DNA from: Longimicrobiales bacterium
Lineage (GTDB): Bacteria > Gemmatimonadota > Gemmatimonadetes > Longimicrobiales > Gaopeijiaceae
Length of the DNA stretch: 64,000 nt
Assembly: GCA_965249725.1 (NCBI GenBank)
Contig: CBDFMQ010000002.1
Span: 2,144,001 to 2,208,000 of the forward strand
Direction of reading: 5' to 3'
In this document: in pieces, positions 36,655-52,766 of the stretch
Layout of the letters: each line of letters opens with the position of its first letter
Position numbering within the stretch: position 1 is the stretch's first letter
Notes under the pieces: model-generated
Databases searched by the model: none
What the model was told of the DNA's origin: nothing
What the model saw: the letters and a program-made list of their open reading frames with translations, nothing else
Program-made: the position numbers and the translations under genes

Positions 36655-38034
36655 ATGAAGAGGCTCTTCCTATTTCTGACCCTCGCCCTGGCAACGGCGG
36701 CACCACTTCAGGCTCAGCGATCTTTCGAGCCGCCGGACAAGCAGCTCCACAGCCAGCGTCGGGCCAACTTCCTCAACGCCATGGAAGGCGGGATCGGCAT
36801 CATCGTGGCGGCCATCGAAGATCAGAACAGGATCTACGAGTTCTTCGTGGATCACTCGGATCTCCACGACTTCATTTACCTGACCGGACTCGAAGCGGGC
36901 GACGCCTATGGGTCGGCGCTCGTCCTCGCCCCCGACGCCGAGACCTATCGGGAGATCCTCTACACAGCGGGAGATCCGGAGGAGATGGCGGAGCTCACGG
37001 GCATCGAGCACGTCTACCCCTACGAGTTGCTCAACGAGCACCTGTCGGACGCCATCACCGACTACTCTCTCCTTCGCACACATCAGCGAGGAGCCAAGGC
37101 GCTCGCCTCGGATCTGTCCCGCTCCTGGGGGGACGAGAAGGTCACATACTTCAACTACCAGCGCTTCCTGAATCTGGCCGAGACACCCCCCGAACGACTC
37201 GACCTTGCCAACCGACTCCGGTACTTCTCGCCCGAGATCCAGATGAAGGATGCGTCGGACATTCTGAATCGACTGCGGATGATCCACGACGAGGCTTCGA
37301 TCGCGATGCTTCGGAAAGCGTCCGACATCACCGTCCAGGCGTTCATGGAGTCGGCCAAGGCCGTCCGTGAAGAGATGACGACGCAGCAGATCGCATCAAT
37401 CGTCAACTTCACCTTCGAGTACGAACACGCGGCACCTTCCTTCCGCACGAACGTCACCCCTTCGGGCCCGAACCTCGCCCCGCGCGGCCGGGGTGGCAGT
37501 GATTGGCCTATCGGAACCCGCCCAAGGCTGGGTCCGTGGCATGTGAGCGACGGCCAGATGCTCAGCTACGATATCGGCGCGGAGTATGCACACTTCACCG
37601 CCGACTTCGGGCGAACGATTCCGGTCAGCGGCGAGTACACACCCGAGCAGCGACGCATCGCCGAGACCGTGACACGCGTCCAAAAGCAATTGATCGCCGC
37701 CGTCAAGCCCGGCGGAACGTTCGCCGGGAGTCAGGCCCTCAAGGACCGGCTCATGGGCGAGGCCGGGTTACTGGATGTCACGAACACGTACGGCATCAGC
37801 CACTTCGTCGGGATGGAGATCCACGACGTGGGCTCCTACGACATTCCGTGGGAGCCTGGAATGTGCTTCGTCATCGAGTGGCGTGTGAGCCACGAGGACT
37901 GGTCGATCCGTTTCGAGGACGTAATCCTGGTGACGGAAGACGGCCAGGAGTGGCTCACCGGGCACTCTCCCATCGAGCCCGACGAGATCGAAGCGCTCAT
38001 GGCGCAGGAGGGGGTCTGGGAGCGGGGTCGCTAG
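36655..38034 (+). CDS. Exported M24 (Xaa-Pro aminopeptidase-like) metallopeptidase
   Basis: Signal peptide; DFIYLTG, DIGAEY...ADFGRTIP, SHFVGMEIHD, IRFEDVILVT. Confidence 0.88.
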   Translation: MKRLFLFLTLALATAAPLQAQRSFEPPDKQLHSQRRANFLNAMEGGIGIIVAAIEDQNRIYEFFVDHSDLHDFIYLTGLEAGDAYGSALVLAPDAETYREILYTAGDPEEMAELTGIEHVYPYELLNEHLSDAITDYSLLRTHQRGAKALASDLSRSWGDEKVTYFNYQRFLNLAETPPERLDLANRLRYFSPEIQMKDASDILNRLRMIHDEASIAMLRKASDITVQAFMESAKAVREEMTTQQIASIVNFTFEYEHAAPSFRTNVTPSGPNLAPRGRGGSDWPIGTRPRLGPWHVSDGQMLSYDIGAEYAHFTADFGRTIPVSGEYTPEQRRIAETVTRVQKQLIAAVKPGGTFAGSQALKDRLMGEAGLLDVTNTYGISHFVGMEIHDVGSYDIPWEPGMCFVIEWRVSHEDWSIRFEDVILVTEDGQEWLTGHSPIEPDEIEALMAQEGVWERGR

Positions 38035-38195
38035 TGTTCCGTCCCAGAACTTCGTTACGCACCGAGGGTGCTGAGGCGCCATCCTGGCAAGGCACGACGA
38101 CGAGGAATAGCGCCGCTATTTCGAGGAGAAGTAACGCCGCCAGGATGGATGCATCAGTGCCCGAATGCCAACGAAGTTCTGGGACGGGACACTAG
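38031..38195. mobile_element. 165-bp MITE-like inverted-repeat element bounded by CTAG
   Basis: 26-bp terminal inverted repeats (CTAGTGTTCCGTCCCAGAACTTCGTT / AACGAAGTTCTGGGACGGGACACTAG, one mismatch) with nested internal stems; too short to encode a transposase. Confidence 0.75.
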
Positions 38196-38465
38196 GTCAG
38201 CGGAGCAGGTGCCGGGCGATTTCGTCACGAAGTCGCTCGGCACGCCTCCGGAACCTCTTGGTCGCGCTGGACCAAATGGTACGCGCGACCCCCAGCCCGG
38301 CCGTCGCCCCGGCCCCCAAGATGGACACCGTGACCATCATGGATTTTCCCGGCTGTAGGTGCCGGGGACGACCGATGATAGAGCAGTGATACCCCGCCGC
38401 TAACCTCTGTGCACGTCGCGAGCCCCCCTTGGAGGCAGGCGATTCCCAACCACAGAGGAGGACCG

Positions 38466-38648
38466 ATGGAGACTCTGACGCCGGACCGCATGCGGACGCT
38501 GCATGGGATGAAGATCGACGAAGGAGAGGTGTGCGGCCTCATGGTCGGCGCCTTGTCGGGCGCCATCTACTTCAGTTGGACCGTACCCGCCGCATTCATC
38601 TTCATGTTCACGCCGATGGTCTGTGTCCTGGACTACGGTCTCCGGTAG
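38466..38648 (+). CDS. Bacteriocin/RiPP-like precursor peptide 1 (60 aa)
   Basis: AGAGGAGGA RBS; METLTPDRMRTLHGM-KIDEGEVCGLMVGALSGAIYFSWTVPAAFIFMFTPMVCVLDYGLR; double-glycine-type leader spacing; C39 transporter nearby. Confidence 0.72.
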   Translation: METLTPDRMRTLHGMKIDEGEVCGLMVGALSGAIYFSWTVPAAFIFMFTPMVCVLDYGLR

Positions 38649-38692
38649 GCAGAACCGACGCCTTCCGCCCCCCCCATCACTCGGAGGTTCCC

Positions 38693-38869
38693 ATGAGAGC
38701 ACTCACCGTCGACGAAATGGCCGACATCGAAGGGATGAAATTCTGGGCCGGCTTCGGCTGTGGTGCAGGCATCATCGCATCCATCGCGGTGACCGGTACC
38801 CCGGACGTCATCGCCCGGTGGTCCATCTACAGCGGCACGATCGCGGCCTGTGGAGCCGCGTTCTTCTAG
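38693..38869 (+). CDS. Bacteriocin/RiPP-like precursor peptide 2 (58 aa)
   Basis: GGAGG RBS; MRALTVDEMADIEGM-KFWAGFGCGAGIIASIAVTGTPDVIARWSIYSGTIAACGAAFF. Confidence 0.8.
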   Translation: MRALTVDEMADIEGMKFWAGFGCGAGIIASIAVTGTPDVIARWSIYSGTIAACGAAFF

Positions 38870-38876
38870 GGGGTAC

Positions 38877-38905
38877 GGGCTGGGCGTCACCGGGGCGCCC
38901 AGCCC
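38877..38905 (+). promoter_or_regulatory. Stem-loop immediately downstream of the precursor genes
   Basis: GGGCTGGGCG (38877-38886) pairs perfectly with CGCCCAGCCC (38896-38905). Confidence 0.55.
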
Positions 38906-39032
38906 ACCTCGTCTCGGCCCCGGCAACCCGAGGTGCGGCTCCTGCCGGGCCCTCGCCTCGATCACCCGGCGGAAGCTCCTCATCGGGAGTCGTCGTTTCC
39001 TCTGGTCCGTCCGGAATACCATCGAGGGAAAG

Positions 39033-40544
39033 ATGGCTTTAGTCGTCCTGGTGGCAGCCCCGTTCTTGATGCGGAACATGCTGGTGTCCTCCTCGCTGCG
39101 TGCAGCACGCACGAGCCGAGATCTGGCGGACGCCACGATGTTGCTCGCCCATGCGGCCATGGCTGCCGCGCTGATGCTTGCGGTGGTCTCGCGCACTGCC
39201 CGCTCCCTCATAATTGAGAAGGCCCCCGAACCTCTGGCTGTCTACCCTGGTGGCCGACGGGGATTGGCGACGTATCACCTCTGGGGAGAAGTCGCTACGA
39301 CGGGACTCTGGCTCATCGGCTTCTTCTACCTCTTCTACGGTCCCCTGGTGTACGACCTGGCTCCTCGACCGACACTGGCTCTCCCAATGCACTTGATCGC
39401 GCAGGCTTTGGTCTTCTGCGCTTTGGGAGCCCTGGCCTACCGCATCACGCTCTGGACGCTCGAGAGCCGACCGTCCGTCGGCCGGTCGCTCTACTCCTGG
39501 GCAAGCGCCGGAGCCATCCTCGCCTTCCTGGGCATGGCCGCCTCGGCTGCCGTCATCGAGGACCTGCCGAGAGGGGGACTGGAGGGCTCGCGTGCGTGGG
39601 TCAGCGCGGCGGCCGGCGCCTATCCACCCCTTGGCGCCCTGGGCCGATCCGTCAGCAGCTTCCCTAGTGCGGTGACGTGGCTGACCGGGGTCGTGTTGGC
39701 CGGGACCGTCGCCTCGATCACGGCAGTCCCCCTCTCGAGGCGGGTGAGTCCCCTGCTATTGGGAGACCTCGAGGGGCTCCTGCACCCTCGCTTCAAGAGC
39801 GTATTCGGAGGACGGGGCAGAGCCGGCGGCGGAGCGCGCCTCTTCTTCCTCAAGGACCTGTGGCTTCCCGCGGTACGGCATCCGCGACGTGTCTTCACGA
39901 GACACTGGGTTCTCCTGGCCATCGCTCTGACGGGGCCAGTCCTGACGTGGCAGCTGCGCCGCGAGGGCCGCGTGAGTGAGATCGTTGCAGCGGCGGCCCT
40001 GTGGGGTGTGGTGATGGCGGTGCCGTCGCTGGCCGCCTATCTGAACGGCTTGGGCGCACTGGGTCGGGAGGGAGCGGTGTCGGCCTTGATTCGTCCCGTC
40101 CTGCGGCCCGCCGCACTCTGGGGCTGCAAGGTGCAAGCGGTACTGGTGGCCGTCGTTCCCCAAGGCCTCGTTTACGGAGCCATCACCGGATGGTCAGCCA
40201 CGAAGCTGGGGCTGGAACCCGGGCCGCTGGAGGCAGCGGGCGCGGGTGCCCTTGCCGGACTGGTCGCCTCGACGAACGCAGTGGGCCTCGGGTTCCTGAT
40301 TCCCGACTTCCGGCGCAGGAGCTTGCTCACCCCGGGTGCGTCGCGGTCCGCGCGACGCCTCTTCGAGGCCCTCGCAGTCTATGGGATCGCCTCCTGCATC
40401 GCGGTGCGGATCATGACCCGCACGGGCGTGCTTCCTCCAACTCTCTTTCCTGTCAGCGTCGCCACCACGGCGGGTCTGGGTCTGACCCTGGGTGGCATCG
40501 TCACCCTGCTCGCCCTTCGTCGATTTCCCTCGCTGGAGAGTTGA
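39033..40544 (+). CDS. Multi-pass membrane protein, putative ABC exporter permease / immunity
   Basis: Many hydrophobic segments; FFLKD..., REG.....IRP.L....LWGCK permease-like pattern; adjacent to an ABC ATPase. Start uncertain (frame is open from 38850). Confidence 0.65.
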   Translation: MALVVLVAAPFLMRNMLVSSSLRAARTSRDLADATMLLAHAAMAAALMLAVVSRTARSLIIEKAPEPLAVYPGGRRGLATYHLWGEVATTGLWLIGFFYLFYGPLVYDLAPRPTLALPMHLIAQALVFCALGALAYRITLWTLESRPSVGRSLYSWASAGAILAFLGMAASAAVIEDLPRGGLEGSRAWVSAAAGAYPPLGALGRSVSSFPSAVTWLTGVVLAGTVASITAVPLSRRVSPLLLGDLEGLLHPRFKSVFGGRGRAGGGARLFFLKDLWLPAVRHPRRVFTRHWVLLAIALTGPVLTWQLRREGRVSEIVAAAALWGVVMAVPSLAAYLNGLGALGREGAVSALIRPVLRPAALWGCKVQAVLVAVVPQGLVYGAITGWSATKLGLEPGPLEAAGAGALAGLVASTNAVGLGFLIPDFRRRSLLTPGASRSARRLFEALAVYGIASCIAVRIMTRTGVLPPTLFPVSVATTAGLGLTLGGIVTLLALRRFPSLES

Positions 40545-40545
40545 T

Positions 40546-41328
40546 GTGACGGATGGCCCATCAATCTGCATCGACCGCCTCACCAAAAGCTTCGGCGCGA
40601 TCGAAGCTGTCTCCGAGTTGAGCCTCACGGTCGGTACGGGGGAGATCGTCTGCTTCTTGGGGCCCAACGGCGCAGGCAAGACGACGACCATCAACACCGT
40701 CATGGGTCTCAAGAGACCGACCTCCGGCGACGTCTTCATCAACGGCGTGAGCGTCCGCGCGCCGCAGGTGGAATCCGTCCGTAGAAGGATCGGCTTCATG
40801 CCTCAGCAGCCGGTACTCTACGACTATCTCACCGGACGGGAGTTCATCCAGTTCTTCGGCGAGTTGTACGGCACCGACCGGCCACTCGACACGTGGCTCG
40901 AAGAACGCTTCTGCGCGCTCGAGATGAGCCATCACGCGGATCGGCTGATCAGAGACTACTCGGCCGGTATGAAGAAGAAGATCTCGTTCCTGACCGCCCT
41001 GGTCCATCAGCCCGACATCCTGCTGTTCGACGAGCCCACGGGGACTCTCGACGCACTGAGTGCACGCATCGTCAAGGACGAGATGCTCGCGGCCCGTAAA
41101 AGGGGTTCGTTGGTCTTCTTCACCACGCACGTCCTGGAAGTCGCCGAACGCCTTGCGGATCGCATCGCGATCATCCGAAACGGGCGCCTCGTCGCCGATG
41201 GGACGCTGCGCGATTTACGCGCGAGACACGGCCGGGGAGCCGGGGAGTCGCTCGAGAACATCTTCCTCCGTCTCGCCCATCAGGCCGGGACGGAAGGCGG
41301 CGCTGGCACGCGGGGCGCGGGCGGGTGA
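40546..41328 (+). CDS. ABC transporter ATP-binding protein (multidrug/bacteriocin type)
   Basis: GPNGAGKTT, YSAGMKKK, LLFDEPT, TTH; GTG 1 nt after the permease stop. Confidence 0.92.
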   Translation: MTDGPSICIDRLTKSFGAIEAVSELSLTVGTGEIVCFLGPNGAGKTTTINTVMGLKRPTSGDVFINGVSVRAPQVESVRRRIGFMPQQPVLYDYLTGREFIQFFGELYGTDRPLDTWLEERFCALEMSHHADRLIRDYSAGMKKKISFLTALVHQPDILLFDEPTGTLDALSARIVKDEMLAARKRGSLVFFTTHVLEVAERLADRIAIIRNGRLVADGTLRDLRARHGRGAGESLENIFLRLAHQAGTEGGAGTRGAGG

Positions 41329-43466
41329 TCCGATGCTCACTCACTCGGCTGATCCTTAGATGTGCCCGCCGTTTGAACCCGCACCCCGTGGTGCGTCAGT
41401 ATGACCGGGTCGATTGCGGCCCGGCCTGTCTCCTGTCCGTCCTCCGGTTCTACGGAGGAGAGATAGGACTCCCTCGACTGCGATCCTGGTGCGGCACCGA
41501 CGCGAACGGCACGAGCCTACTCGGCCTTCAGAGGGCTGCGACCACCCTCGGATTCGAGGCCCGGGGTGCCAGCGGTACCTTCGAGCAGCTGAGCCAGGAG
41601 CATCTGCCCTGCATCGCTCACGTGGTACAGGAGAAGGCACAACACTACGTCGTCATCTTTGGGGTGCGAGGGCGTCGACTGGAGGTGGGCGACCCCGCGG
41701 CCGGGCTCCGCTGGCTCACACGTGACGAATTCGAGCACATGTGGAGCCATCGAGCGGTGCTGCTCCTCCGGCCGGGCCCGAAGCTCCTTCGCGAACCTCC
41801 ACCGCACTGGTTCAGCTGGGTCCTCTCCCGTATCCGCCACGACTACGGGCTATTGGTGCAATCGGTATTCCTCGGGGTCATCTCCACCGCCCTGGGGCTG
41901 GCTACCGCGGTCGTCGTCCAACGGTTGATCGATGACTTCATCCCACAACACGACGTCGCTCGGATCCTGTGGGCCGGGGGGTTCCTTCTCACGCTCCACG
42001 CGGTGAGGGGGCTCACGGCGTACCTGCGACAGCGCTTCTTGGTAGGGCTCGGGAAGCGGGCCTCCACCGCGATCGCCTCGGAGTTCCTCGAACAGCTCTT
42101 CCGGCTTCCCGCCGGATACTTCGACACGCGAAAGCGCGGCGACGTCATCGCCCGTCTCCAGGACGCCTCGCGGATCCAGAGCGCGGTCCTGGACCTCTTG
42201 GGGAGCACCACCATCGACCTGCTCGTCACCACGCTTTCGATCGCCGCAGTCTTCTACTTCTCACCGCCTTTGGGTTGGATCTCGCTCGTGCTACTGCTCC
42301 CGTGCGCGCTGCTCGCCGGGTCGACCGCGAGGCGGATTCACCGAGAACACGACGCGGCTCTCGGCGCCTACGGGCTTCTGCACGCCTCCTACGTCGATGC
42401 CGTCGACGGAATGGACACCATACGAGGGCTCGGCGTGGGGCGGGTCTTCACGCGGCAGAACCTGGCCCTCTTCGGCCGGTTCCAGACCAGGGTCGAGCGG
42501 CTGGGTCTGACACGTGCCGCAATCGGGTTCCAGGTAGAGAGTTTGAACGGTGCCCTGTTGGCAACGACCCTCACGGTCGGCGCCGTTCAGGTCGTCGCGG
42601 GGAATCTGGGTATCGGGGCCATGATGGCGGCGTATTCGCTGGTAGCGGGCGCTCTGCCGAGCATGCAGCGGGTCATCGAGGGCCTCTTCACGTTCCAGGG
42701 CGGAGGAGCCGCCGCCCAACGACTTCAGGACCTCCTGCTCACTGACCCGGAGAGCAGCGACGGCGTGCTGCCCTTCCGGATGGACGTCGAGTTGAGTCTC
42801 GACGGTGCCGGATTCGAGTGGCCGAACGGGGACTCTGTCCTGAAGGGAGCCCACCTGACCCTGAAGCGCGGTCGGATCGTCGGGGTCAGCGGCGCAAACG
42901 GATCCGGCAAGACCACCCTCGTCCATCTCCTGTCGAGGCGCTATCCGCTCAGGGATGGCCTGCTGAGGGTCGATGAAGTCGATGCATCGAGCATCGACCT
43001 TGAAGCGTACCGGCGCGCGGTGGCCGTCGTCCCGGAGACGGTGAAGATCTTCCATGGCACACTTGGCGAGAACATCGCCCTCGGGGCGATCGGCCTGTGC
43101 GCCCAAGAGCTCGGCCACCGCCTCCGCGATCTCGCGGTGGGCCCGTTCATCAGCCGGTTCAAGGATGGCCTGGAGACGGTACTCGGCGAGGACGGTCGAC
43201 GCCTCTCAGCCGGGGAACGCCAGATGATTGGACTGATACGCGTCCTCCTAGGGCGGCCCTCCGTTCTCATCGTCGACGAAGGCCTGAACGCCCTCGATCC
43301 CCAAACCTATCGGACGGCCGCCCAAGCCCTCTCCGCCCACGCCGAGCGAGGCGCGATTCTGCTCATCTCTCATCACCCGTCGGTGCTGGCGCTCGCCGAT
43401 GAGCGGTTCCGCCTCGAGGGAGGGGCCCTCGCGCCCGTCTCCGAACCCGAGGCCCAGGCGGCGTGA
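41325..43466 (+). CDS. Peptidase-containing ABC transporter (C39 peptidase, TMD, NBD)
   Basis: VRQYDRVDCGPACL (Gln/Cys), QHYVV (His), GDP (Asp); YFDTRKRGD; GANGSGKTT, LSAGERQ, LIVDE. Confidence 0.93.
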   Translation: MIRCSLTRLILRCARRLNPHPVVRQYDRVDCGPACLLSVLRFYGGEIGLPRLRSWCGTDANGTSLLGLQRAATTLGFEARGASGTFEQLSQEHLPCIAHVVQEKAQHYVVIFGVRGRRLEVGDPAAGLRWLTRDEFEHMWSHRAVLLLRPGPKLLREPPPHWFSWVLSRIRHDYGLLVQSVFLGVISTALGLATAVVVQRLIDDFIPQHDVARILWAGGFLLTLHAVRGLTAYLRQRFLVGLGKRASTAIASEFLEQLFRLPAGYFDTRKRGDVIARLQDASRIQSAVLDLLGSTTIDLLVTTLSIAAVFYFSPPLGWISLVLLLPCALLAGSTARRIHREHDAALGAYGLLHASYVDAVDGMDTIRGLGVGRVFTRQNLALFGRFQTRVERLGLTRAAIGFQVESLNGALLATTLTVGAVQVVAGNLGIGAMMAAYSLVAGALPSMQRVIEGLFTFQGGGAAAQRLQDLLLTDPESSDGVLPFRMDVELSLDGAGFEWPNGDSVLKGAHLTLKRGRIVGVSGANGSGKTTLVHLLSRRYPLRDGLLRVDEVDASSIDLEAYRRAVAVVPETVKIFHGTLGENIALGAIGLCAQELGHRLRDLAVGPFISRFKDGLETVLGEDGRRLSAGERQMIGLIRVLLGRPSVLIVDEGLNALDPQTYRTAAQALSAHAERGAILLISHHPSVLALADERFRLEGGALAPVSEPEAQAA

Positions 43467-43476
43467 GGCCGCTGGC

Positions 43477-44229
43477 ATGACTACACAGCGCGCCTTTCTG
43501 TTGATCACGCTCGCCTGGTTGGGCGTTACGCTCTACACGAACGAACGGGTTCTCGCTCCCGAGGTCATGGCCGATGTGGTTCAACGCACGACCGGTGTCG
43601 AGACGCCGGTCGACCAACTGGAGCAGCTGCGTAGACAGGGCCGGTGGGCGTACCCGCTGCTTCCCGTGCTTCTCGCCATCCGGGTCGGCGTCGCAGGGCT
43701 GGTGCTGCAGCTCGTAGCGATTCTGATGGCACACCCGCTCCGGTACGTGGAGGCATTCCGTGCGGGTCTCTGGGGATTCGGAGCCGTAACGTATGGCACC
43801 TTCATACGGATGCTGAGGTTGGATCTCCTGCCAGCGGGTTCGCTTACGCGGGCGGAGCTGCTTACGGTGCCCGATTCGCTGGCTGTCCTTCTTCCAGGCC
43901 CTGGGCTCAAACCGGGGCCGGCGACGACCGTCCTTTCGGCCACACTGAGCACACTCACCCTACACGATGCCTTGTGGATCGGAATCGTGACGGCCTGCCT
44001 CATGCGCCTGCCCGGACTCGAAGGTCGGCGGGCCTTCACGATCGCCCTGGTCGCTTGGGGCATTACAGCACTAGCGAGAGTCGGCGCCCAGGTCTTCATG
44101 GCCAGCGTGCTCATGTGCCCCGGACCTCGTTGCTCTAGGCCTCCTTGCCCCCACATCGGTCCTCCCCTTACCGTGCTCGTCCGCCCCAGTCGGCGCTGTC
44201 ACACCCATTGCCAGAGAACCGTGCCATGA
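43477..44229 (+). CDS. Membrane protein (possibly Yip1-like) of the peptide locus
   Basis: About five hydrophobic segments; same strand, 10 bp after the C39 transporter. Confidence 0.6.
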   Translation: MTTQRAFLLITLAWLGVTLYTNERVLAPEVMADVVQRTTGVETPVDQLEQLRRQGRWAYPLLPVLLAIRVGVAGLVLQLVAILMAHPLRYVEAFRAGLWGFGAVTYGTFIRMLRLDLLPAGSLTRAELLTVPDSLAVLLPGPGLKPGPATTVLSATLSTLTLHDALWIGIVTACLMRLPGLEGRRAFTIALVAWGITALARVGAQVFMASVLMCPGPRCSRPPCPHIGPPLTVLVRPSRRCHTHCQRTVP

Positions 44230-44853: not shown

Positions 44854-46497
44854 ATGGCGAATCTACAGACACGGACCGGCACTCGTATCGGCTCCTGGAG
44901 CGGTCCGACCGACAGCCTGCTCACGACGCCGACGGAGCGGGCGGAGGGTCTGGCGCGAGTGGGCCTCCCTCTCTACGCCGTCGATCACGGCGACACCTTT
45001 GCGTTCTCGCATGTGGGTGCCGCAGAACTCGGCGGCGAGCCCCGGGTCGAGGGCTTTCCCCTCCTCGCCCTGGCCCCCGCCTGCAAGCCCCAAAACCTCG
45101 GATCGGCTGAATTCGCGCGGGACCATGGCGTCCGTTTCTGCTATCTGGCGGGCGCCATGGCGAACGGAATCGCGTCTGTAGAACTCGTCGAGGCCATGGG
45201 GCGGGCGGGAATGCTGTCGTTCTTCGGCGCCGCCGGCCTCGGACCGGACAAGGTGGAGGACGCCATCGACCACATCTCCACACGTCTGGGTGACCTGCCC
45301 TGGGGCTTCAACCTGATTCACAGCCCCTATGAGCCACGGCTCGAGGAAGCCGTAGCCGACCTATATGTGCGGCGGGGCGTGAGTCGAGTATCGGCCTCGG
45401 CCTACATGGATCTCACGCTGCCGCTCGTGCGGTACCGGCTGCATGGGATCCATGCCGATTCATCGGGCCGGGTCGTGACCCCGCACCGGGTGGTCGCTAA
45501 GGTCTCTCGCATCGAGGTTGCCAGGCGGTTCTTCGCGCCGGCACCAGCCAAGATGGTGGCCGAGTTGGTGGCTCGCGGAGACCTGACCGAAGAACAGGCC
45601 CAGATGGCTAATCGCGTCCCGGTCGCGCAGGACCTGACGGTGGAGGCGGACTCCGGCGGCCATACGGACAACCGGCCCGCCATCGCCCTTCTCCCCACGA
45701 TGCTTGCCCTACGCGATCGACTCCAACTCGAGCACGAATACGAGATGCCTCTGCGTGTAGGTGCCGCTGGCGGAATCTCGACGCCGCATTCCGTGGCCGC
45801 CGCGTTCGCGATGGGTGCCGATTACGTGATGACGGGCTCCGTGAATCAGGCGTGCCGAGAGGCCGGCACGTCCGATACGGTGCGCCAAATGCTCGCTGAG
45901 GCGGAGCAGGCGGACGTGACCATGGCTCCGGCCGCGGACATGTTCGAAATGGGCGTCAGGTTGCAGGTCCTCAAGCGTGGGACGATGTTTCCCATGAGGG
46001 CTCACCGCCTTTATGATCTCTATAGAGCCCATGCAGGGCTCGAAGACATCCCCAACGACGAACGGCAGAATCTAGAGCGTACGATTTTCCGTACGTCATT
46101 GGACGAGATCTGGAACGAGACGCGCAGCTTCTGGGAAGCACGTGACCCGGTTCAGGTCGAAAAAGCCGAGCGCGATCCGAAACATCGGATGGCGCTGGTC
46201 TTTCGGTGGTATCTGGGGATGTCTTCGCGGTGGGCGAACCGCGGTGAACCGGGTCGTGAGATGGACTATCAGGTGTGGTGCGGCCCGGCGATGGGAGCCT
46301 TCAACGAATGGGTAAGGGGCAGCGTGCTCGAGCCCTGGGAGAATCGTCGCGCGGTAAGCGCGGCGCACAACATGTTGCACGGTGCTGCGGTCATTGGACG
46401 AGCGAACGCTCTACGCAGCCAGGGAGTGGAGTTGCCGGCCACCGATGTGGACGTCCGCCCCCGAGAAACAGATGAACTCGAGGAATTGCTGTCTTGA
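44854..46497 (+). CDS. pfaD: PUFA synthase enoyl reductase PfaD
   Basis: GAMANGIAS, FGAAGL, SASAYM, AKVSRIEVA, EADSGGHTDNRP, MAPAADMFEMGV, DYQVWCGPAMGAFN. Confidence 0.95.
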   Translation: MANLQTRTGTRIGSWSGPTDSLLTTPTERAEGLARVGLPLYAVDHGDTFAFSHVGAAELGGEPRVEGFPLLALAPACKPQNLGSAEFARDHGVRFCYLAGAMANGIASVELVEAMGRAGMLSFFGAAGLGPDKVEDAIDHISTRLGDLPWGFNLIHSPYEPRLEEAVADLYVRRGVSRVSASAYMDLTLPLVRYRLHGIHADSSGRVVTPHRVVAKVSRIEVARRFFAPAPAKMVAELVARGDLTEEQAQMANRVPVAQDLTVEADSGGHTDNRPAIALLPTMLALRDRLQLEHEYEMPLRVGAAGGISTPHSVAAAFAMGADYVMTGSVNQACREAGTSDTVRQMLAEAEQADVTMAPAADMFEMGVRLQVLKRGTMFPMRAHRLYDLYRAHAGLEDIPNDERQNLERTIFRTSLDEIWNETRSFWEARDPVQVEKAERDPKHRMALVFRWYLGMSSRWANRGEPGREMDYQVWCGPAMGAFNEWVRGSVLEPWENRRAVSAAHNMLHGAAVIGRANALRSQGVELPATDVDVRPRETDELEELLS

Positions 46498-49400
46498 GCG
46501 ATCGGAATGAGAATCGGGCCGCGGCCCAGTCACCCATAGCCATCGTCGGCATCGCCTGCGTATTCCCCAAGGCGGGCGGCCTGCATGACTACTGGGCCAA
46601 TGTGCGGAACGGTGTTGACGCCATTACCGAGATCCCCGGGGCGCATTGGAAGACGTCGGAGTACTACGACGCCGACCCAAAGCGGCCGGACATGACGTAT
46701 GGCCGCCGCGGCGGCTTCATCGATCCCATCGACTTCGAGCCCATGGCCTTCGGCATCCCGCCGCGGGACCTCGAAGCCACGGACAGCACCCAACTTCTCG
46801 GCCTGCACGTGGCCCGTCAGGCTCTCGACGACGCCGGCTACGGCGCCGAGGGTCGCGAGTTCGATCGCGAGAAGACGAGCGTCATCCTAGGCGTGAGCGG
46901 TACGCTGCCGTTGGTGATTCCTCTAGGCGCCCGCCTCGGACACCCCATCTGGCGCAAAGCGCTGGAAGATGCCGGGGTCGACCCCGAGACGACCGAAGAC
47001 GTCATCGAGCGTATCGGCGAAGGCTACGTCCCGTGGCAGGAGAACTCCTTCCCCGGACTCCTCGCCAACGTCGTGGCCGGCCGCATCGCGAATCGCCTCG
47101 ACCTTCACGGGACCAACTGCATCGTTGATGCGGCCTGCGCTTCGTCGCTCAGCGCGGTTCATCTCGCGGCTCTCGAGCTCGAGTCCGGCCGGTCGGACAT
47201 GGTCCTGAGCGGTGGCCTGGACACGTTCAACGACATCTTCATGTACATGTGCTTCTCCAAGACGCCGGCGCTGTCGGCCACGGGGAATGCTCGCCCGTTC
47301 AATAATGAGGCCGACGGCACGATTCTGGGTGAGGGCGTCGGCATGCTGGTACTCAAGCGGTTGGGGGATGCGGAACGAGACGGCGACCGCATCTATGCCG
47401 TGATCAAGGGCATCGGATCTTCTTCCGATGGCAAAGGACAGGCCGTATACGCGCCAGCCCCCGAGGGTCAGGCACGGGCGTTGCGATCGGCATACGAGAA
47501 CGCCGGCATCCGGCCCGACACCGTCGAGCTCGTCGAGGGTCACGGCACGGGCACCCGTGTCGGTGACGCCACCGAAGCGAAGGGCCTGACGACCGTCTAC
47601 CGAGAGGCCAACCCTGAGGGCACGTGGTGCGCCCTCGGATCCGTAAAGTCGATGATCGGTCACACCAAGGCCGCGGCGGGAGCGGCGGGCCTGATCAAGA
47701 CGGCTATGGCGCTCCACCACAAGACTCTTCCCCCAACCATCAAAGTGGAGAGCCCCAACGAGGCAGTGGCCACAGGGGAGACCCCGTTCTACGTGAACAC
47801 CGAGAAGCGCCCCTGGCTGCCCAAGAGCGCGCACCCGCGCCGCGCCGGCGTGAGCGCATTCGGGTTCGGGGGCAGCAACTTCCACTGCGTGGTGGAGGAG
47901 TACGAGTCGAACGCCACGGAGGTCGATTGGGACGGCCGCGATCAGCTGATCGCCTTCTCAGCCGCCGATAGGGAGGCCCTCGCAGCGCAGCTCGAGGAGT
48001 TCGAGGCGGAGGGCGACTGGTCTGACATCCGGGGACGGGCCGCCGAGAGCCGGGTCCGCTTCGACGTGTCGGACGAGATAAGGCTGCTTCTTGTCGCCGA
48101 CCGGGACGGGACCCCCGTCGCCGATCTGATCGGGATGGCGCTCTCGCAGTTGAAGAACGAACGAGCGTCGTGGACGATGCCCCAGGGCATCTACTTCGGG
48201 TCCGGGGCCGCCAAGGGCAAATGGGCGGCGTGCTTCCCTGGACAGGGCGCCCAATACGTCGGAATGCTCCGCGAACTGGCGTGCCGCTTCCCTGCTGCTG
48301 CCGACGCCTTGGCGGCTTCGGACGAAGTCACGCCGGGGCTTGCCGACCGGGTCTATCCGCATCCGGCCTTCGACGACGCCACTCGATCGCAGCAGGAGGA
48401 CGCGCTCCGTGCCACGGAGACCGCCCAGCCCGCCATCGGCGCGGTCAGTCTGGCCGCTCTCCGAGTGCTCGAGCAGTTCGGTCTCAAGCCCGATGCTACG
48501 TGCGGCCACAGCTACGGTGAACTCGTAGCCCTGTGCGCCGCAGGACGCCTCCGGCCCATGGAGCTGTACCAACTGTCGCGGCGCCGTGGTGAGCTCATGG
48601 CGATCGGGGACGGAGACCACGGCTCGATGCTGGCCGTGGCGGCAGAACTGGAGTGGGTCAAACAGTTCTTGCGGACCCATGACCTGGACTTGGTCGTGGC
48701 GAACCACAACGCGCCGGAGCAGGCCGTTCTTTCCGGGATCACGTACGAAATCGAGCGCGCCCAGGATCTCTTGTCCAAAGAGGGCGTGAGAGTAAAGCGC
48801 CTCGCCGTAGCCGCTGCTTTCCACAGCAGCCTCGTGGCCCAGGCGGGTGCGCCGTTCGCCGAGAGCCTCACGAGCATCGACGTGACGGGCAGCGACGTGA
48901 CGGTGTACGCCAACGCCACGGGCGCCGCCTATCCGGAGCGCTCGGCCGACGCCCGCGAGCTACTGGCGAGCCAGCTGACGTCGCCCGTGGAGTTCGTCGG
49001 GTGCGTGAAGTCGATGTTCGAGGATGGCGTGCGGACCTTCGTGGAGGTGGGCCCTGGGCGTCGCCTCTCGGCCCTCATCGACGAGATCCTGGCCGGAGAG
49101 GACATTTCCACCGTGGCCATCGATGCTTCCTCCGGCCGCCGAGCCGGGCTGGTGGACCTTGCCCGAACGCTGGCCCAGGTGGCCGCGGAAGGGCATCCTG
49201 TGGCCCTGGATCGGTGGGATGATGGAGCCCTCGAGGCCTGGCAGCACGAGATCGCTCGCGGCAAGCCGACAATGACCGTTCCCATTTCTGGTGTGAACCA
49301 CGTGGACCCAAGACCGAAGCGGCCGCCGAGAGCGGCTGTGCCGACTAGGGCGCCCTCGTCCACATCGGATCCACAACTGTTGGCCGAGGCCATGCGCGCG

Positions 49401-52400
49401 AGTCAGGCGAGCCTCCAAGCGCTGGTGCGGCTCCAGGAGCAGACGGCGGACGTACACCGCCGATTCCTCGAGTCTCAGGAGCGGACCATTCAGGCCATCG
49501 CAAGACAGCAGGGACTGTTGCCAGAGGCGTCGATCCCACCGGCCATGCCGGCTGCGGTGGCGGCTCCCGTTGTGATGCCGGAACCCGTTCTGCTCCAGAC
49601 GCCCGCGGTGCCTGCTGAGCCTGCACCTGTTGAGCCTGCACCTGCCGGGCCTGCATCTGCTCAGCCGACGTCCGTTGAGTCCGCACCTGCGCCCGAGTCG
49701 GACGCCCCCGTGCCCGGCATCGCTGCGGCGCTCCTTTCGGTCGTGTCCGAGAAGACCGGGTATCCCGAAGAGATGCTCGAGCTTTCCATGGGACTCGACG
49801 CGGATCTGGGCATCGACTCGATCAAGCGGGTTGAGATCCTGTCCGCCCTCCAGGAGCGGCTTCCGGGCGCACCGGTCATCACACCCGAGCACTTGGGCGA
49901 AATCCAGACGCTCGGACAGATCGTCGAATTCCTGGGCGGGTCTGCCTCCGAAGCGGACGGACCGTCGGTGGACGCCGGCAACGGTGGGGTCGAAGCGACG
50001 CCCGCAGCCGAGTCGACCACCGCCAGCATAGCTGAGCCGGAAGCAACGGTGGCCGGCAATGGCGCGGCCGACACTGAGACCAACGGAACCGCCGATGCGC
50101 CACGGATCGCGGAGGTCCTGCTCGCGGTGGTCGCGGACAAGACGGGATATCCCGTCGACATGCTCGATGTGTCGATGAATCTGGACGCGGACCTGGGTAT
50201 CGACTCGATCAAGCGGGTCGAGATCCTGGCCGCACTGCAGGAAGCGCTCCCGGAGGCTCCGGTCGTGGCTCCGGACCAACTCGGCGAACTGCGTACGCTC
50301 AGCCAGATCGTGGACGTGCTCGCGCAGGGGGGCGAGGCCGAGCCCACGCCCTCGCTGGCCGTTGCAGACCTGCCGGTTCAGACCGCCGCGACCGTCGCGA
50401 CCGGTGTCGAGCGTCTCGTACCGACGCTTCGGCCCCTCGGCGCGATCGGAGATCCGATCGGGCTGCCGGCAGGATCCAAGATCTGGGTGACCAAGAGTGG
50501 CGACGTCCTCTCGGGCCAGATCGTCGAGGAACTCAGTGCACAGGGCTACTCCGCCGAAGAGGTGGAACTGACCGACCCGACGCAGGACCCACCCGATGAC
50601 GTAGCCGGCCTGATCGTGGTCGTACCTCCCCGGGTCACCGACGAGGACATCCTCTTCGGCTTCGGGCGTGTGCGGGCCATGGCCCCCGTCCTTCGTCGCG
50701 CAGCGCTGCAGGGCGGTGCCCTCCTGTGCAGCGTGACTTGTCTCGGCGGCGGCTTCGCCCTCGAAGCGGCTCCCCCCGAAGATGTGGACCCGACGGGCGG
50801 CGCTTGGGGTGGCATGACCAAGACGGCCGCAGCGGAATGGACCGAGGTCGACTGCAAGTGCATCGACGTGGACCCCAACCGCATCGACCTCGCGTCGGAC
50901 GTAGTCAAGTACGCCCTCTCGGAGGGGCCGGTTGAAATCGGCCTGGGGAGCAACGGGCCAGTCACGGTGGTCCTCGAACCACAGCCGGTCGAGCCTGCGG
51001 CACACGCGGCCCTGGGATCCGACGACGTGGTGTTGATCACCGGTGGGGCCCGGGGTGTGACCGCAGAGGTAGCAGTAGCCATGGCCGAGGCGGGACAGCC
51101 ACGGCTCATCCTCATGGGCCGCAGCGCCGAGCCGACCAGTGAGCCCGACTGGCTCATCGGCCTCGACGGAGAGGCGGACATCAAGCGCGCCATCGTGGCC
51201 CAGGCGGGTCCGGGCGTCAGCCCCCAAGAGGTGCAAGCGGAGTTCAACCGCATCCAGGCCAGCCGGGAGATCCTGCGAAACCTCGCCCGGATCTCGGCGG
51301 CAGGTTCCGAGGTCGTGTATTCGTCTGTGGATGTACGTGAGCCCGAAGCCGTACGTGCCCGCCTCGAACCGCTGATCGAGGCGTATGGACCGATCACTGG
51401 GCTCGTGCATGGAGCCGGTGTTCTGGCCGACCGCAACATCGAAGACAAGAGCGACGAGGATTTCGCTTTCGTCTATGACACCAAAGTGGGTGGATTGCGC
51501 TCCGTGCTCGCTGCGCTGGAGGACGCTCCGCTGAAGACGATGGTGATGTTCTCCTCGTCGACAGCCCGCTTCGGGCGACGCGGGCAATCGGATTACGCCG
51601 CGGCCAACGAGGTGCTGAACAAGGTGGCGCAGGTCGAAGCCGCCCGCCGGGAAGGCTGTAGAGTGGTCTCGGTAAACTGGGGCCCGTGGGATGGTGGCAT
51701 GGTGACCCCGGCCCTGAAGGACATGTTCTCCGCCGAGGGCATCGAAGTGATCGGCATGGAGAGCGGAGCCGCCTACCTGCTCGACGAGATCGCGTGCGAC
51801 GGACCCGCCGAGGTGCTCATTCTCGGGGCAGGGTCACAGCTGCCCACCGAGAAGTACGCGTCGGTGGAAGCCACCAACAGCGCCGCGCCGGACGAGTTGC
51901 CGGTGGTCTTCGAGCGGACGATCACTACCGACACCCACGAGTTCATGGCGTCCCACGTCCTGGACGGTCATGCCGTGCTCCCGGCCGCGATGACGTTGGA
52001 ATGGCTCGCCCACAGTGCTCTCCACGGGAATCCGGGACTGCGTTTCGTCGGCGTGGACGACTTCCGCGTCTTCAAGGGCGTGCTCGTTCAGTCACAGGAG
52101 TCCGTGCAGGTACGCGTTTGTGCCGACGCGGCTCGCCGACGTGGAGACGAGTTCGTCGTGACCGCGGAGCTCTGCAGCGGTGGCAGCAATGGCCGCCGGG
52201 TGCTCCACGCCAGAGCCGAGATCGTCTTGGCGGCGAGGCAGCCCGACGCGGTAACGCCCAACGCCTCCAAGGACCTTCCGGCGCTCAAGCAGTCGATCGA
52301 AAGCATTTATGCCGAGACACTCTTCCACGGACCGGCAATGCGGGGCCTGGTCGACGTGGAGAGCTGTGGTGACTCGGGTCTCGTGGCTCGCTGCCGGGTC

Positions 52401-52766
52401 GCTCCGCCTCCCCGGGACTGGATGCAGGAGCCGGTGCGCAATCGGTGGATCGCCGATCCCCTCGTGCTCGATAGTGGACTCCAGGCCATGATCGTCTGGA
52501 CGTCCGACCGGGTCGGCGAAGCCTCTCTGCCCTCGCGATTGACGCGGTATCGGCAGTTCGTCCCCGCCTTCCCCGATGATGGGGCGCGCATCGTCATCAG
52601 CGTGCGTGACCGCACGGAGGCCCGAGTGGTGTCCGACATCGACTGGATCGGTGTCGATGGACGCCTGCTCGCGCGCCTCGAAGGGTACGAGTCGGTCGTG
52701 GACTCCTCGCTCAGCAAGGCGTTCCGCCAGAACAGCCTCGACAAGAGCGCGTCGACGAAGGCGTAG
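46494..52766 (+). CDS. pfaA: PUFA synthase PfaA-like (KS-MAT-ACPx2-KR-DH)
   Basis: DAACASS, HGTGT, GHTKAAAG, FPGQG, GHSYGE, AFHS, LDADLGIDSIKRVEIL twice, TGGARGVT, DYAAANE, HVLDGHAVLP; TTG overlaps the pfaD stop. Confidence 0.92.
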   Translation: MSDRNENRAAAQSPIAIVGIACVFPKAGGLHDYWANVRNGVDAITEIPGAHWKTSEYYDADPKRPDMTYGRRGGFIDPIDFEPMAFGIPPRDLEATDSTQLLGLHVARQALDDAGYGAEGREFDREKTSVILGVSGTLPLVIPLGARLGHPIWRKALEDAGVDPETTEDVIERIGEGYVPWQENSFPGLLANVVAGRIANRLDLHGTNCIVDAACASSLSAVHLAALELESGRSDMVLSGGLDTFNDIFMYMCFSKTPALSATGNARPFNNEADGTILGEGVGMLVLKRLGDAERDGDRIYAVIKGIGSSSDGKGQAVYAPAPEGQARALRSAYENAGIRPDTVELVEGHGTGTRVGDATEAKGLTTVYREANPEGTWCALGSVKSMIGHTKAAAGAAGLIKTAMALHHKTLPPTIKVESPNEAVATGETPFYVNTEKRPWLPKSAHPRRAGVSAFGFGGSNFHCVVEEYESNATEVDWDGRDQLIAFSAADREALAAQLEEFEAEGDWSDIRGRAAESRVRFDVSDEIRLLLVADRDGTPVADLIGMALSQLKNERASWTMPQGIYFGSGAAKGKWAACFPGQGAQYVGMLRELACRFPAAADALAASDEVTPGLADRVYPHPAFDDATRSQQEDALRATETAQPAIGAVSLAALRVLEQFGLKPDATCGHSYGELVALCAAGRLRPMELYQLSRRRGELMAIGDGDHGSMLAVAAELEWVKQFLRTHDLDLVVANHNAPEQAVLSGITYEIERAQDLLSKEGVRVKRLAVAAAFHSSLVAQAGAPFAESLTSIDVTGSDVTVYANATGAAYPERSADARELLASQLTSPVEFVGCVKSMFEDGVRTFVEVGPGRRLSALIDEILAGEDISTVAIDASSGRRAGLVDLARTLAQVAAEGHPVALDRWDDGALEAWQHEIARGKPTMTVPISGVNHVDPRPKRPPRAAVPTRAPSSTSDPQLLAEAMRASQASLQALVRLQEQTADVHRRFLESQERTIQAIARQQGLLPEASIPPAMPAAVAAPVVMPEPVLLQTPAVPAEPAPVEPAPAGPASAQPTSVESAPAPESDAPVPGIAAALLSVVSEKTGYPEEMLELSMGLDADLGIDSIKRVEILSALQERLPGAPVITPEHLGEIQTLGQIVEFLGGSASEADGPSVDAGNGGVEATPAAESTTASIAEPEATVAGNGAADTETNGTADAPRIAEVLLAVVADKTGYPVDMLDVSMNLDADLGIDSIKRVEILAALQEALPEAPVVAPDQLGELRTLSQIVDVLAQGGEAEPTPSLAVADLPVQTAATVATGVERLVPTLRPLGAIGDPIGLPAGSKIWVTKSGDVLSGQIVEELSAQGYSAEEVELTDPTQDPPDDVAGLIVVVPPRVTDEDILFGFGRVRAMAPVLRRAALQGGALLCSVTCLGGGFALEAAPPEDVDPTGGAWGGMTKTAAAEWTEVDCKCIDVDPNRIDLASDVVKYALSEGPVEIGLGSNGPVTVVLEPQPVEPAAHAALGSDDVVLITGGARGVTAEVAVAMAEAGQPRLILMGRSAEPTSEPDWLIGLDGEADIKRAIVAQAGPGVSPQEVQAEFNRIQASREILRNLARISAAGSEVVYSSVDVREPEAVRARLEPLIEAYGPITGLVHGAGVLADRNIEDKSDEDFAFVYDTKVGGLRSVLAALEDAPLKTMVMFSSSTARFGRRGQSDYAAANEVLNKVAQVEAARREGCRVVSVNWGPWDGGMVTPALKDMFSAEGIEVIGMESGAAYLLDEIACDGPAEVLILGAGSQLPTEKYASVEATNSAAPDELPVVFERTITTDTHEFMASHVLDGHAVLPAAMTLEWLAHSALHGNPGLRFVGVDDFRVFKGVLVQSQESVQVRVCADAARRRGDEFVVTAELCSGGSNGRRVLHARAEIVLAARQPDAVTPNASKDLPALKQSIESIYAETLFHGPAMRGLVDVESCGDSGLVARCRVAPPPRDWMQEPVRNRWIADPLVLDSGLQAMIVWTSDRVGEASLPSRLTRYRQFVPAFPDDGARIVISVRDRTEARVVSDIDWIGVDGRLLARLEGYESVVDSSLSKAFRQNSLDKSASTKA
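49611..49685 (+). repeat. Degenerate 15-bp tandem repeat (five units) encoding the PAEPA/PVEPA/PAGPA linker before ACP1
   Basis: cctgctgagcctgca, cctgttgagcctgca, cctgccgggcctgca, ... Confidence 0.65.

Follow-up and report, generated by a model that had tools for sequence, protein, structure and literature searches.

Six genes, all on the forward strand, lie together in the genome of an uncultured member of the Longimicrobiales (Gemmatimonadota), within a 64,000-nucleotide stretch of assembly GCA_965249725.1 (contig CBDFMQ010000002.1, positions 2,144,001 to 2,208,000) that we refer to as the window and whose numbering is used throughout. Two small open reading frames (ORFs), here termed precursors A and B, are followed by genes for the permease and ATPase of an ATP-binding cassette (ABC) exporter, for a PCAT (peptidase-containing ABC transporter) and for a Yip1-like membrane protein; the GC content of this cassette is that of the window. 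A sequence-only reading had proposed the locus as a new two-peptide bacteriocin system. Here we describe the genes, their conservation in related genomes, and what the cassette may produce.

The precursor peptides

Precursor A (38466..38648, + strand) encodes 60 amino acids (aa), comprising a 15-aa leader that ends in Gly-Met and a 45-aa core, and precursor B (38693..38869, + strand) encodes 58 aa, with a leader of the same length and ending before a 43-aa core. The sequence-only reading had described both as small ORFs with strong ribosome-binding sites (RBSs) hidden inside longer calls, ahead of a C39 transporter, an ABC pair and a membrane protein, and this description is confirmed. The RBS, AGGAGG for A and GGAGGT for B, lies 4 nt 5' of each ATG, and the enclosing GTG/TTG calls span 38409-38648 (A) and 38429-38869 (B); these longer ORFs were rejected as the true genes because orthologs start at the RBS-linked ATG. 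Two genomes of the same genus keep both ORFs in synteny, with identities of 95% and 72% for A and 88% and 65% for B. The ratio of nonsynonymous to synonymous substitution rates (dN/dS) is 0.04-0.28 for A over five orthologs and 0.15-0.34 for B over four, and changes are enriched at third codon positions, which indicates that both small ORFs are under purifying selection. This selection and the kept synteny argue, as had been claimed, for real precursors bearing C39-type leaders, and both ORFs are kept beside homologous PCATs. A strict 15-residue leader pattern, drafted with A and B in view, fits only these two among the genome's 4,110 small RBS-bearing ORFs; no further PCAT substrate was found elsewhere in the genome, and a word-index protein search returned B itself as its sole match.

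Both cores are hydrophobic and carry cysteines at positions 8 and 38. Core A has a net charge of -2, a grand average of hydropathy (GRAVY) of 0.99 and a glycine zipper (GxxxGxxxG), and core B a net charge of +1, a GRAVY of 1.02, a central T/S-P-D turn and an N-terminal FWxG motif; GxxxG motifs number three in A and two in B. The cysteine pair is invariant in 18 of 18 A-type sequences, spaced by 30 in 17 of them, and 17 of the 18 B-type sequences have two cysteines spaced by 30 or 32. The B profile matched 69 representatives (E<=0.001) in a library of 1.84 billion, a few of them low-complexity false hits, and 56 of the 58 short representatives have exactly two cysteines after the leader. These patterns suggest that each core is a disulfide-closed helical hairpin, and the fixed cysteine spacing, together with the lack of a tailoring enzyme in the locus, supports the earlier proposal of an unmodified or disulfide-closed pair. 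Five B-type homologs from the library (P0031, P0034, P0038, P0060 and P0070) have, N-terminal to the leader-like segment, a long hydrophobic extension similar to a Sec signal peptide, and may represent a variant exported independently of a PCAT.

The PCAT recognition pattern consists of hydrophobic residues at -12, -7 and -4 plus Gly at -2, and the typical cleavage site is GG, GA or GS (PMC10885120, PMC6363468). The corresponding residues are L/M/L/G in A and L/M/I/G in B, so that the double-glycine leaders of the sequence-only reading stand as to the C39-type hydrophobic pattern and the Gly at -2 and fall as to the site itself, which is Gly-Met. Sites in 36 aligned precursors are GG, GA or GS in 21, GM in 7 and other in 8; the 58 short library representatives, a count from which 11 longer hits were excluded, include 10 GE and 6 GR sites, with 8 unmatched. 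Since GM, GE and GR sites occur across the family, position -1 appears to be loose family-wide and not particular to the window's genus. A cut at residue 15 would give B an N terminus of KFW, resembling the start of bacteroidetocin A detected by liquid chromatography-mass spectrometry after its 15-residue leader (PMC6671954, supplement 1).

A and B resemble each other on profiles, and the claim that the cores match no described bacteriocin is upheld, as neither a Pfam or NCBIfam family at its cut-off nor bacteroidetocin B matches them. On NCBIfam the window peptides gave weak hits far below cut-off, and none of 41 relatives reached a cut-off. Three of 18 B-type relatives and two of 18 A-type relatives matched Pfam Bacteriocin_IIc weakly, and the nearest Atlas clusters include Blp/Bacteriocin_IIc at 0.91. 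Bacteroidetocin B, the one tested of 19 known bacteroidetocins, scored -1.4 bits on the B profile and 0.3 bits on the A profile. A complex prediction for core A with core B (score 0.02, mark 0.32) is evidence neither way.

Transporter genes and the Yip1-like protein

The permease gene (38940..40544, + strand) encodes about 530 aa. Its start codon is uncertain: conserved residues precede the first ATG (39033), and no indel was seen near the start in four public sequencing runs covering the stretch, which may include the source sample. Pfam gave no hit in any of 14 permease sequences, and Foldseek found no match at E<=0.001 for the permease or Yip1-like model. VIA-align comparisons of the C-terminal half of the permease model (pLDDT 79) gave NosY at Z 14.2 (rmsd 3.9, 215 aligned), CcmB at 14.1, ABCG2 at 13.5 and PmtD at 11.7, by which this half is predicted to have the type V (ABC-2/ABCG) transmembrane fold. 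The partner ATPase (40546..41328, + strand) matches PF00005 (E 2.9e-28), its best NCBIfam model being of drrA type and below cut-off. The earlier assignment of these adjacent genes to an ABC exporter is thus borne out, the exporter being ABC-2-like by the fold of the permease model.

The PCAT (41325..43466, + strand; 713 aa) combines a C39 peptidase domain (PF03412, E 1.5e-32) with transmembrane (PF00664) and nucleotide-binding (PF00005) domains, and is the sole C39 domain found in the genome. Its catalytic motifs are intact, as had been noted: Q25, C31, H107 and D123 are all present and are invariant in nine of nine aligned C39 domains.

The last gene encodes a Yip1-like five-helix membrane protein (43477..44229, + strand), 250 aa long by read-through and 213 aa, ending at 44118, in sister strains. 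Because three of the four sequencing runs have TGA instead of TGC at 44116-44118, the gene normally ends at 44118, and the end at 44229 marks a read-through allele. The Pfam Yip1 family was matched in only 4 of 19 sequences, all of them distant, and fell below cut-off in one cassette member; VIA-align gave the model no clear fold (best Z 8.2, 81 aligned), and a plasmid search with a Bacteroidota homolog returned no match. The transmembrane (TM) protein of the bacteroidetocin B locus (L156), which was fetched and whose peptide matches the published one by eye, scored 63.1 bits on a profile of 35 cassette-linked sequences; none of 500 shuffles exceeded 4.9, and generic Yip1 proteins scored 20-32. 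A reciprocal profile, built from 18 non-Gemmatimonadota members plus the bacteroidetocin B TM protein, found the window gene as its sole match among 14,906 ORFs (E 2.3e-16), and in a FastTree phylogeny the bacteroidetocin B protein nests among PCAT-linked Bacteroidota proteins (0.997), apart from a generic Yip1 clade (0.974). Judged from these profiles and this tree, homology between the window protein and the bacteroidetocin TM protein is solid. Deletion of the bacteroidetocin TM gene is reported to have attenuated toxin activity, and its expression in a sensitive strain gave no protection (PMC6671954). The sequence-only reading had counted this last membrane protein as an immunity factor; that role is unlikely, because its homolog is needed for production and is not protective.

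Conservation and distribution of the cassette

The permease profile matched 18 of 301 genomes of the family. Adding G177, G492 and five further loci to these matches gave 25 non-redundant permease loci, and 22 of the 25 hold one A-type and at least one B-type precursor, in either order, as typed by profiles built from part of the same locus set, whose kin are not independent. The three exceptions are a frameshifted A-type gene read by eye in G539, a locus disrupted by an insertion sequence (IS) in which no precursor was found (G510), and a contig edge (L090); B lacks an ATG start in G497 and the second cysteine in G492. A precedes B in the window's clade, and seven genomes have B first. Insertion sites vary, some are accompanied by transposases, and the cassette has decayed in G002 and G510, all of which fits an accessory competition locus.

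In G002 (L042:8898-10560) the permease is in two frames and a deletion leaves a truncated PCAT fused with the last part of the Yip1-like gene, an apparent decay that is possibly an assembly error. Immediately upstream of the cassette, three genomes of a single genus (L055:1998-4237, L056:1928-4191 and L058:9072-11330) share two unannotated signal-peptide-like genes with no Pfam hit.

Records from KSB1, Calditrichota, Melioribacter, Marinimicrobia, Haliscomenobacter and Frateuria likewise pair a PCAT gene with a Yip1-like gene, often adding an ATPase, permeases of other kinds and from one to three leader peptides that bear cysteines. The locus in Frateuria (Gammaproteobacteria; L117:2789-9106) has a full set of ATPase, permease-like gene, two cysteine peptides, thioredoxin-like gene, Yip1-like gene and PCAT. 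Thioredoxin-fold genes, mostly below cut-off, were found in 10 of 16 sampled distant loci, and MauE in two. In a Bacteroidota sample, 48 of 401 genomes match the Yip1-like profile, and a PCAT is adjacent in 11 of the 30 loci that were inspected over 1.5 kb on each side.

Flanking genes, export partners and disulfide formation

The flanks of the cassette vary among relatives, which place it beside the his operon, corC/lspA, a hydantoinase gene, or peptidases and pfa genes; we therefore take the unit to be the six genes. The M1 and M24 peptidases upstream in the window and the RidA and PfaD genes downstream were rejected as parts of the cassette since the flanks of relatives differ. Pfam and NCBIfam scans of the locus proteins confirmed the earlier statement that no tailoring enzyme lies within the locus, the rest of the genome not having been searched for such enzymes. 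No recurrent tailoring enzyme was found among 72 flanking ORFs of 16 loci, these being the ORFs submitted of 179 called after cassette genes and unlikely ORFs were excluded. SpoIIM/DUF95 gave no Pfam hit in the window proteins, the 14 permease sequences or the 19 Yip1-like sequences.

Class II microcins require a PCAT, a membrane fusion protein and TolC (PMC12219008, PMC10352776). No HlyD adaptor is present in the window locus or among the 72 flanking ORFs, and the bacteroidetocin B locus likewise lacks one; as a control, HlyD was found in four of five PCAT loci of another type. These loci (L046-L050) are of a second PCAT type in Gemmatimonadota; their arrangement is more conventional and microcin-like and includes acidic double-glycine peptides and, in the two tested, a CAAX protease gene. 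The source genome has five HlyD-type genes, all far from the cassette, and as each sits beside an outer-membrane efflux gene, the host is a diderm. A thiol oxidoreductase gene is absent from the window locus; two DsbA-like genes lie elsewhere in the genome, which is 96% complete and in which no VKOR was found.

Several features of the neighborhood stand apart from the cassette. The M24 peptidase gene (window 36655-38034) has an 82% identical paralog at G000:C3:2818483-2819790. Directly 3' of its stop lies an imperfect palindrome of 165 bp (window 38031-38195), to which many metagenome contigs map; a second copy (81%) occurs at G000:C3:1456787-1456952, with related copies in G001, G002 and other family genomes, and the palindrome is probably a miniature inverted-repeat transposable element (MITE) or an element like repetitive extragenic palindromic (REP) sequences. 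On the 3' side of the cassette (window 44854-52766), PfaD (TIGR02814, above cut-off) precedes a PfaA-like polyketide/fatty acid synthase of 2,090 aa; these genes are linked to the cassette in several close relatives, yet lie outside the unit.

Upstream repeat and stem-loop

Two (G/A)TGAT(A/G) repeats 11 bp apart, followed by a TAnnnT -10-like hexamer (38401-38406), form an element upstream of precursor A (38373..38406, + strand) that recurs in each of the 10 upstream regions aligned from close loci. A matrix trained on the other nine regions scored the window site at 32.3 bits, against 19.4 for the next best in the genome. The element is likely, from this conservation, to be a promoter with a regulator site, although a generic sigma-70 scan found no promoter there and a combined sigma-70 and terminator scan performed at chance level. 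The repeat is unique in the genome, and no regulon for it was found there.

A GC-rich stem-loop without a T-tail lies directly 3' of precursor B (38877..38905, + strand). It is present 3' of B in most close loci and absent in G542; seven chosen loci share a 12-pair consensus in which one pair is changed on both sides in three of the seven, the covariation term being not favorable. A role as an mRNA stabilizer or attenuator is possible.

Comparison with known systems

The cassette most invites comparison with the bacteroidetocins of gut Bacteroides, the proposed class IIf, defined by a leader of 15-16 aa, two or more cysteines and a PCAT (PMC6671954), all of which the window peptides have. Both systems have a homologous linked five-helix TM protein and neither has an adaptor or immunity gene in the locus; core B starts KFW as bacteroidetocin A does, and a thiol oxidoreductase gene is also found in distant relatives of the window cassette. 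The window differs in having two precursors in place of one, an added type V ABC pump, predicted hydrophobic two-cysteine hairpins where the bacteroidetocins are polar and have four cysteines, a Gly-Met site, a PCAT only 24% identical, no oxidoreductase gene (linked in most bacteroidetocin loci), and a host of a different phylum. The bacteroidetocin genes, four in number, have been expressed in E. coli K-12.

Class IIb bacteriocins have GxxxG in both of their cationic cores and a dedicated immunity gene beside the precursors. The window resembles these two-peptide, Blp-type (PF10439) systems in its adjacent precursor pair with C39-type leaders, its dedicated PCAT, its GxxxG motifs and the weak family matches of its relatives; unlike them, it has a diderm host, non-cationic cores, no small immunity gene between precursor B and the permease (a role that the type V pump could fill), a predicted conserved disulfide in both peptides, and genes for a Yip1-like protein and a type V ABC pump. 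In Caulobacter crescentus, CdzC and CdzD form a comparable Gram-negative two-peptide system, with unmodified glycine-zipper peptides that are cell-associated, but that system includes the type I adaptor CdzB and the small immunity protein CdzI, and its peptides are 84-86 aa long (PMC5380434); the Cdz homolog search described there left out zippers that a Cys or Pro breaks up. Class II microcins of the MccV type share a PCAT-cleaved 15-residue leader, a disulfide-bonded core (predicted for the window peptides) and a diderm producer (PMC12219008), but have beside the PCAT a membrane fusion protein that was not found at the window locus. Clusters for circular and leaderless bacteriocins can also include Yip1 proteins and accessory ABC transporters (PMC8659200, PMC11580447); circular bacteriocins, however, require a SpoIIM/DUF95 membrane protein (PMC8659200), of which there was no match in the window proteins. 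Because it departs from each in a defining trait (charge, adaptor or core sequence), we file the cassette under no known class.

A literature search, conducted mostly outside subscription journals, found no description of a Gemmatimonadota C39 bacteriocin or of a two-peptide bacteriocin like the window pair, and no paper joining bacteroidetocin to Yip1. The Gemmatimonadota survey in PMC11316326 lists only broad classes of biosynthetic gene cluster in its text, and 'gemmatimon' does not appear in the main text of a 2025 microcin survey; the supplements of either could list such peptides as predictions. Class II peptide clusters are common, and the paired precursor family itself is, by these comparisons, undescribed.

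Discussion

On balance we think the cassette probably encodes an undescribed, unmodified, disulfide-closed two-peptide antibacterial, made on a bacteroidetocin-like export chassis to which an ABC exporter has been added. The PCAT would bind the hydrophobic leader residues at -12, -7 and -4, cut after Gly-Met and move the cores across the inner membrane, where the single cysteine pair of each would be oxidized in the periplasm to close a helical hairpin, by a housekeeping DsbA-like enzyme in this host and by a dedicated thioredoxin-like gene product in distant relatives. The Yip1-like protein would be a production factor, as in bacteroidetocin loci. The type V pump could serve as immunity, clearing the hydrophobic hairpins from the producer's inner membrane for both release and self-protection. 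Without an adaptor there would be no one-step type I route, and the peptides may be associated with cells or vesicles or freed by lysis, a means of release that the bacteroidetocin authors leave open (PMC6671954). We infer that A and B are membrane-active and have a two-component action, in which they would act jointly on the envelope of neighboring bacteria, packing through their GxxxG surfaces.

Several observations weigh against this interpretation. The Gly-Met site of A and B falls outside the GG/GA/GS rule, the cores are not cationic (-2 and +1, in a family range of -2 to +4), and they show conservation in place of rapid diversification. Pfam gave the window peptides no hit at E<=1, and shared-feature counts in the Atlas (151-163) are below the 170 typical of same-family hits. 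No small immunity gene lies between B and the permease. The HlyD profile matched 1 of 47 loci, several of which are short contigs, and that one stands beside a MacB-type pump; as all five HlyD genes of the genome lie elsewhere, each next to an outer-membrane factor of its own, the reading offers no account of how the peptides reach other cells. As to the link with bacteroidetocins, a Gemmatimonadota-only profile scores the bacteroidetocin TM protein at 22 bits, no closer than generic Yip1 proteins (11-26), the deep nodes of the Yip1-like tree are weak (0.35-0.71), and orthology is not solid.

Several of these points would be expected if the peptides were no weapon and remained in the producer's envelope as a structural or membrane-conditioning hetero-oligomer, with the PCAT, Yip1-like protein and type V ABC pump as its assembly line. 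The missing adaptor and immunity gene and the neutral, very hydrophobic, strongly conserved cores speak for this, and one PCAT substrate is reported to end up in the envelope of its producer (MAM, PMC12184118). We nevertheless consider it unlikely, given the patchy spread of the cassette over the family and its decay in some genomes, and given machinery kin to that of a proven toxin locus also lacking adaptor and immunity genes. Somewhat less credible is that A and B work independently, each as a single-peptide bacteriocin, and have one exporter in common; their target might then be a protein such as BamA. The two are alike on profiles, distant loci carry one to three variable peptides, and B starts with the KFW of bacteroidetocin A, which targets BamA (PMC8546649); yet both types are kept in 22 of 25 loci despite flips in their order, the exceptions being a frameshift, a contig edge and an IS disruption, and bacteroidetocin B scores no higher than 0.3 bits on the profile of either A or B.

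The conserved direct repeat upstream, the weak match of the leader regions to BlpC, and the LytTR, LuxR, AraC or sigma-54 regulators adjoining 4 of 16 distant loci raise the question of pheromone-like signals, whose sensor would be a regulator binding to the 11-bp direct repeat. This is improbable: no sensor or regulator lies within the close loci, one flank of which holds a histidine-kinase gene, the uniqueness of the repeat leaves no evident regulon, and hydrophobic cores of 43-45 residues are long for pheromones. Least probable of all, in our estimate, is that the cores are further modified or cyclized head to tail by membrane proteins or by enzymes encoded elsewhere. The presence of Yip1 proteins and accessory ABC transporters in circular and leaderless clusters (PMC8659200, PMC11580447) and the M1 and M24 peptidases upstream of the window cassette point that way, but SpoIIM/DUF95 is missing, the N- and C-terminal lengths of the cores vary, no tailoring enzyme recurs in the 72 flanking ORFs, and M1 and M24 are absent beside most homologous loci.

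The proposal of a two-peptide antibacterial can be extended, although the extension is doubtful. The PCAT, the Yip1-like protein and the type V pump might together constitute an unrecognized, adaptor-free route in diderms that matures disulfide hairpin peptides and extracts them from the inner membrane, in Gemmatimonadota, Bacteroidota, Calditrichota, KSB1 and Marinimicrobia. The window locus would then be its two-peptide form, with a C39 domain tolerating Met, Glu or Arg at -1, and the bacteroidetocins a stripped-down relative. The analysis places the bacteroidetocin TM protein in the Yip1 family and so links it to the Yip1 genes found in clusters for circular and leaderless bacteriocins, and makes testable both the role of Yip1 in such clusters and the question, left open in PMC6671954, of how PCAT substrates without an adaptor exit diderms. 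If real, cleavage after Gly-Met or Gly-Glu by a C39 domain would widen the leader rules used in genome mining and perhaps provide a useful protease, and cores of 43-45 residues are within reach of synthesis. If the two-peptide interpretation is correct, the cassette would give a phylum known mostly from genome bins a concrete family of peptide antibacterials.

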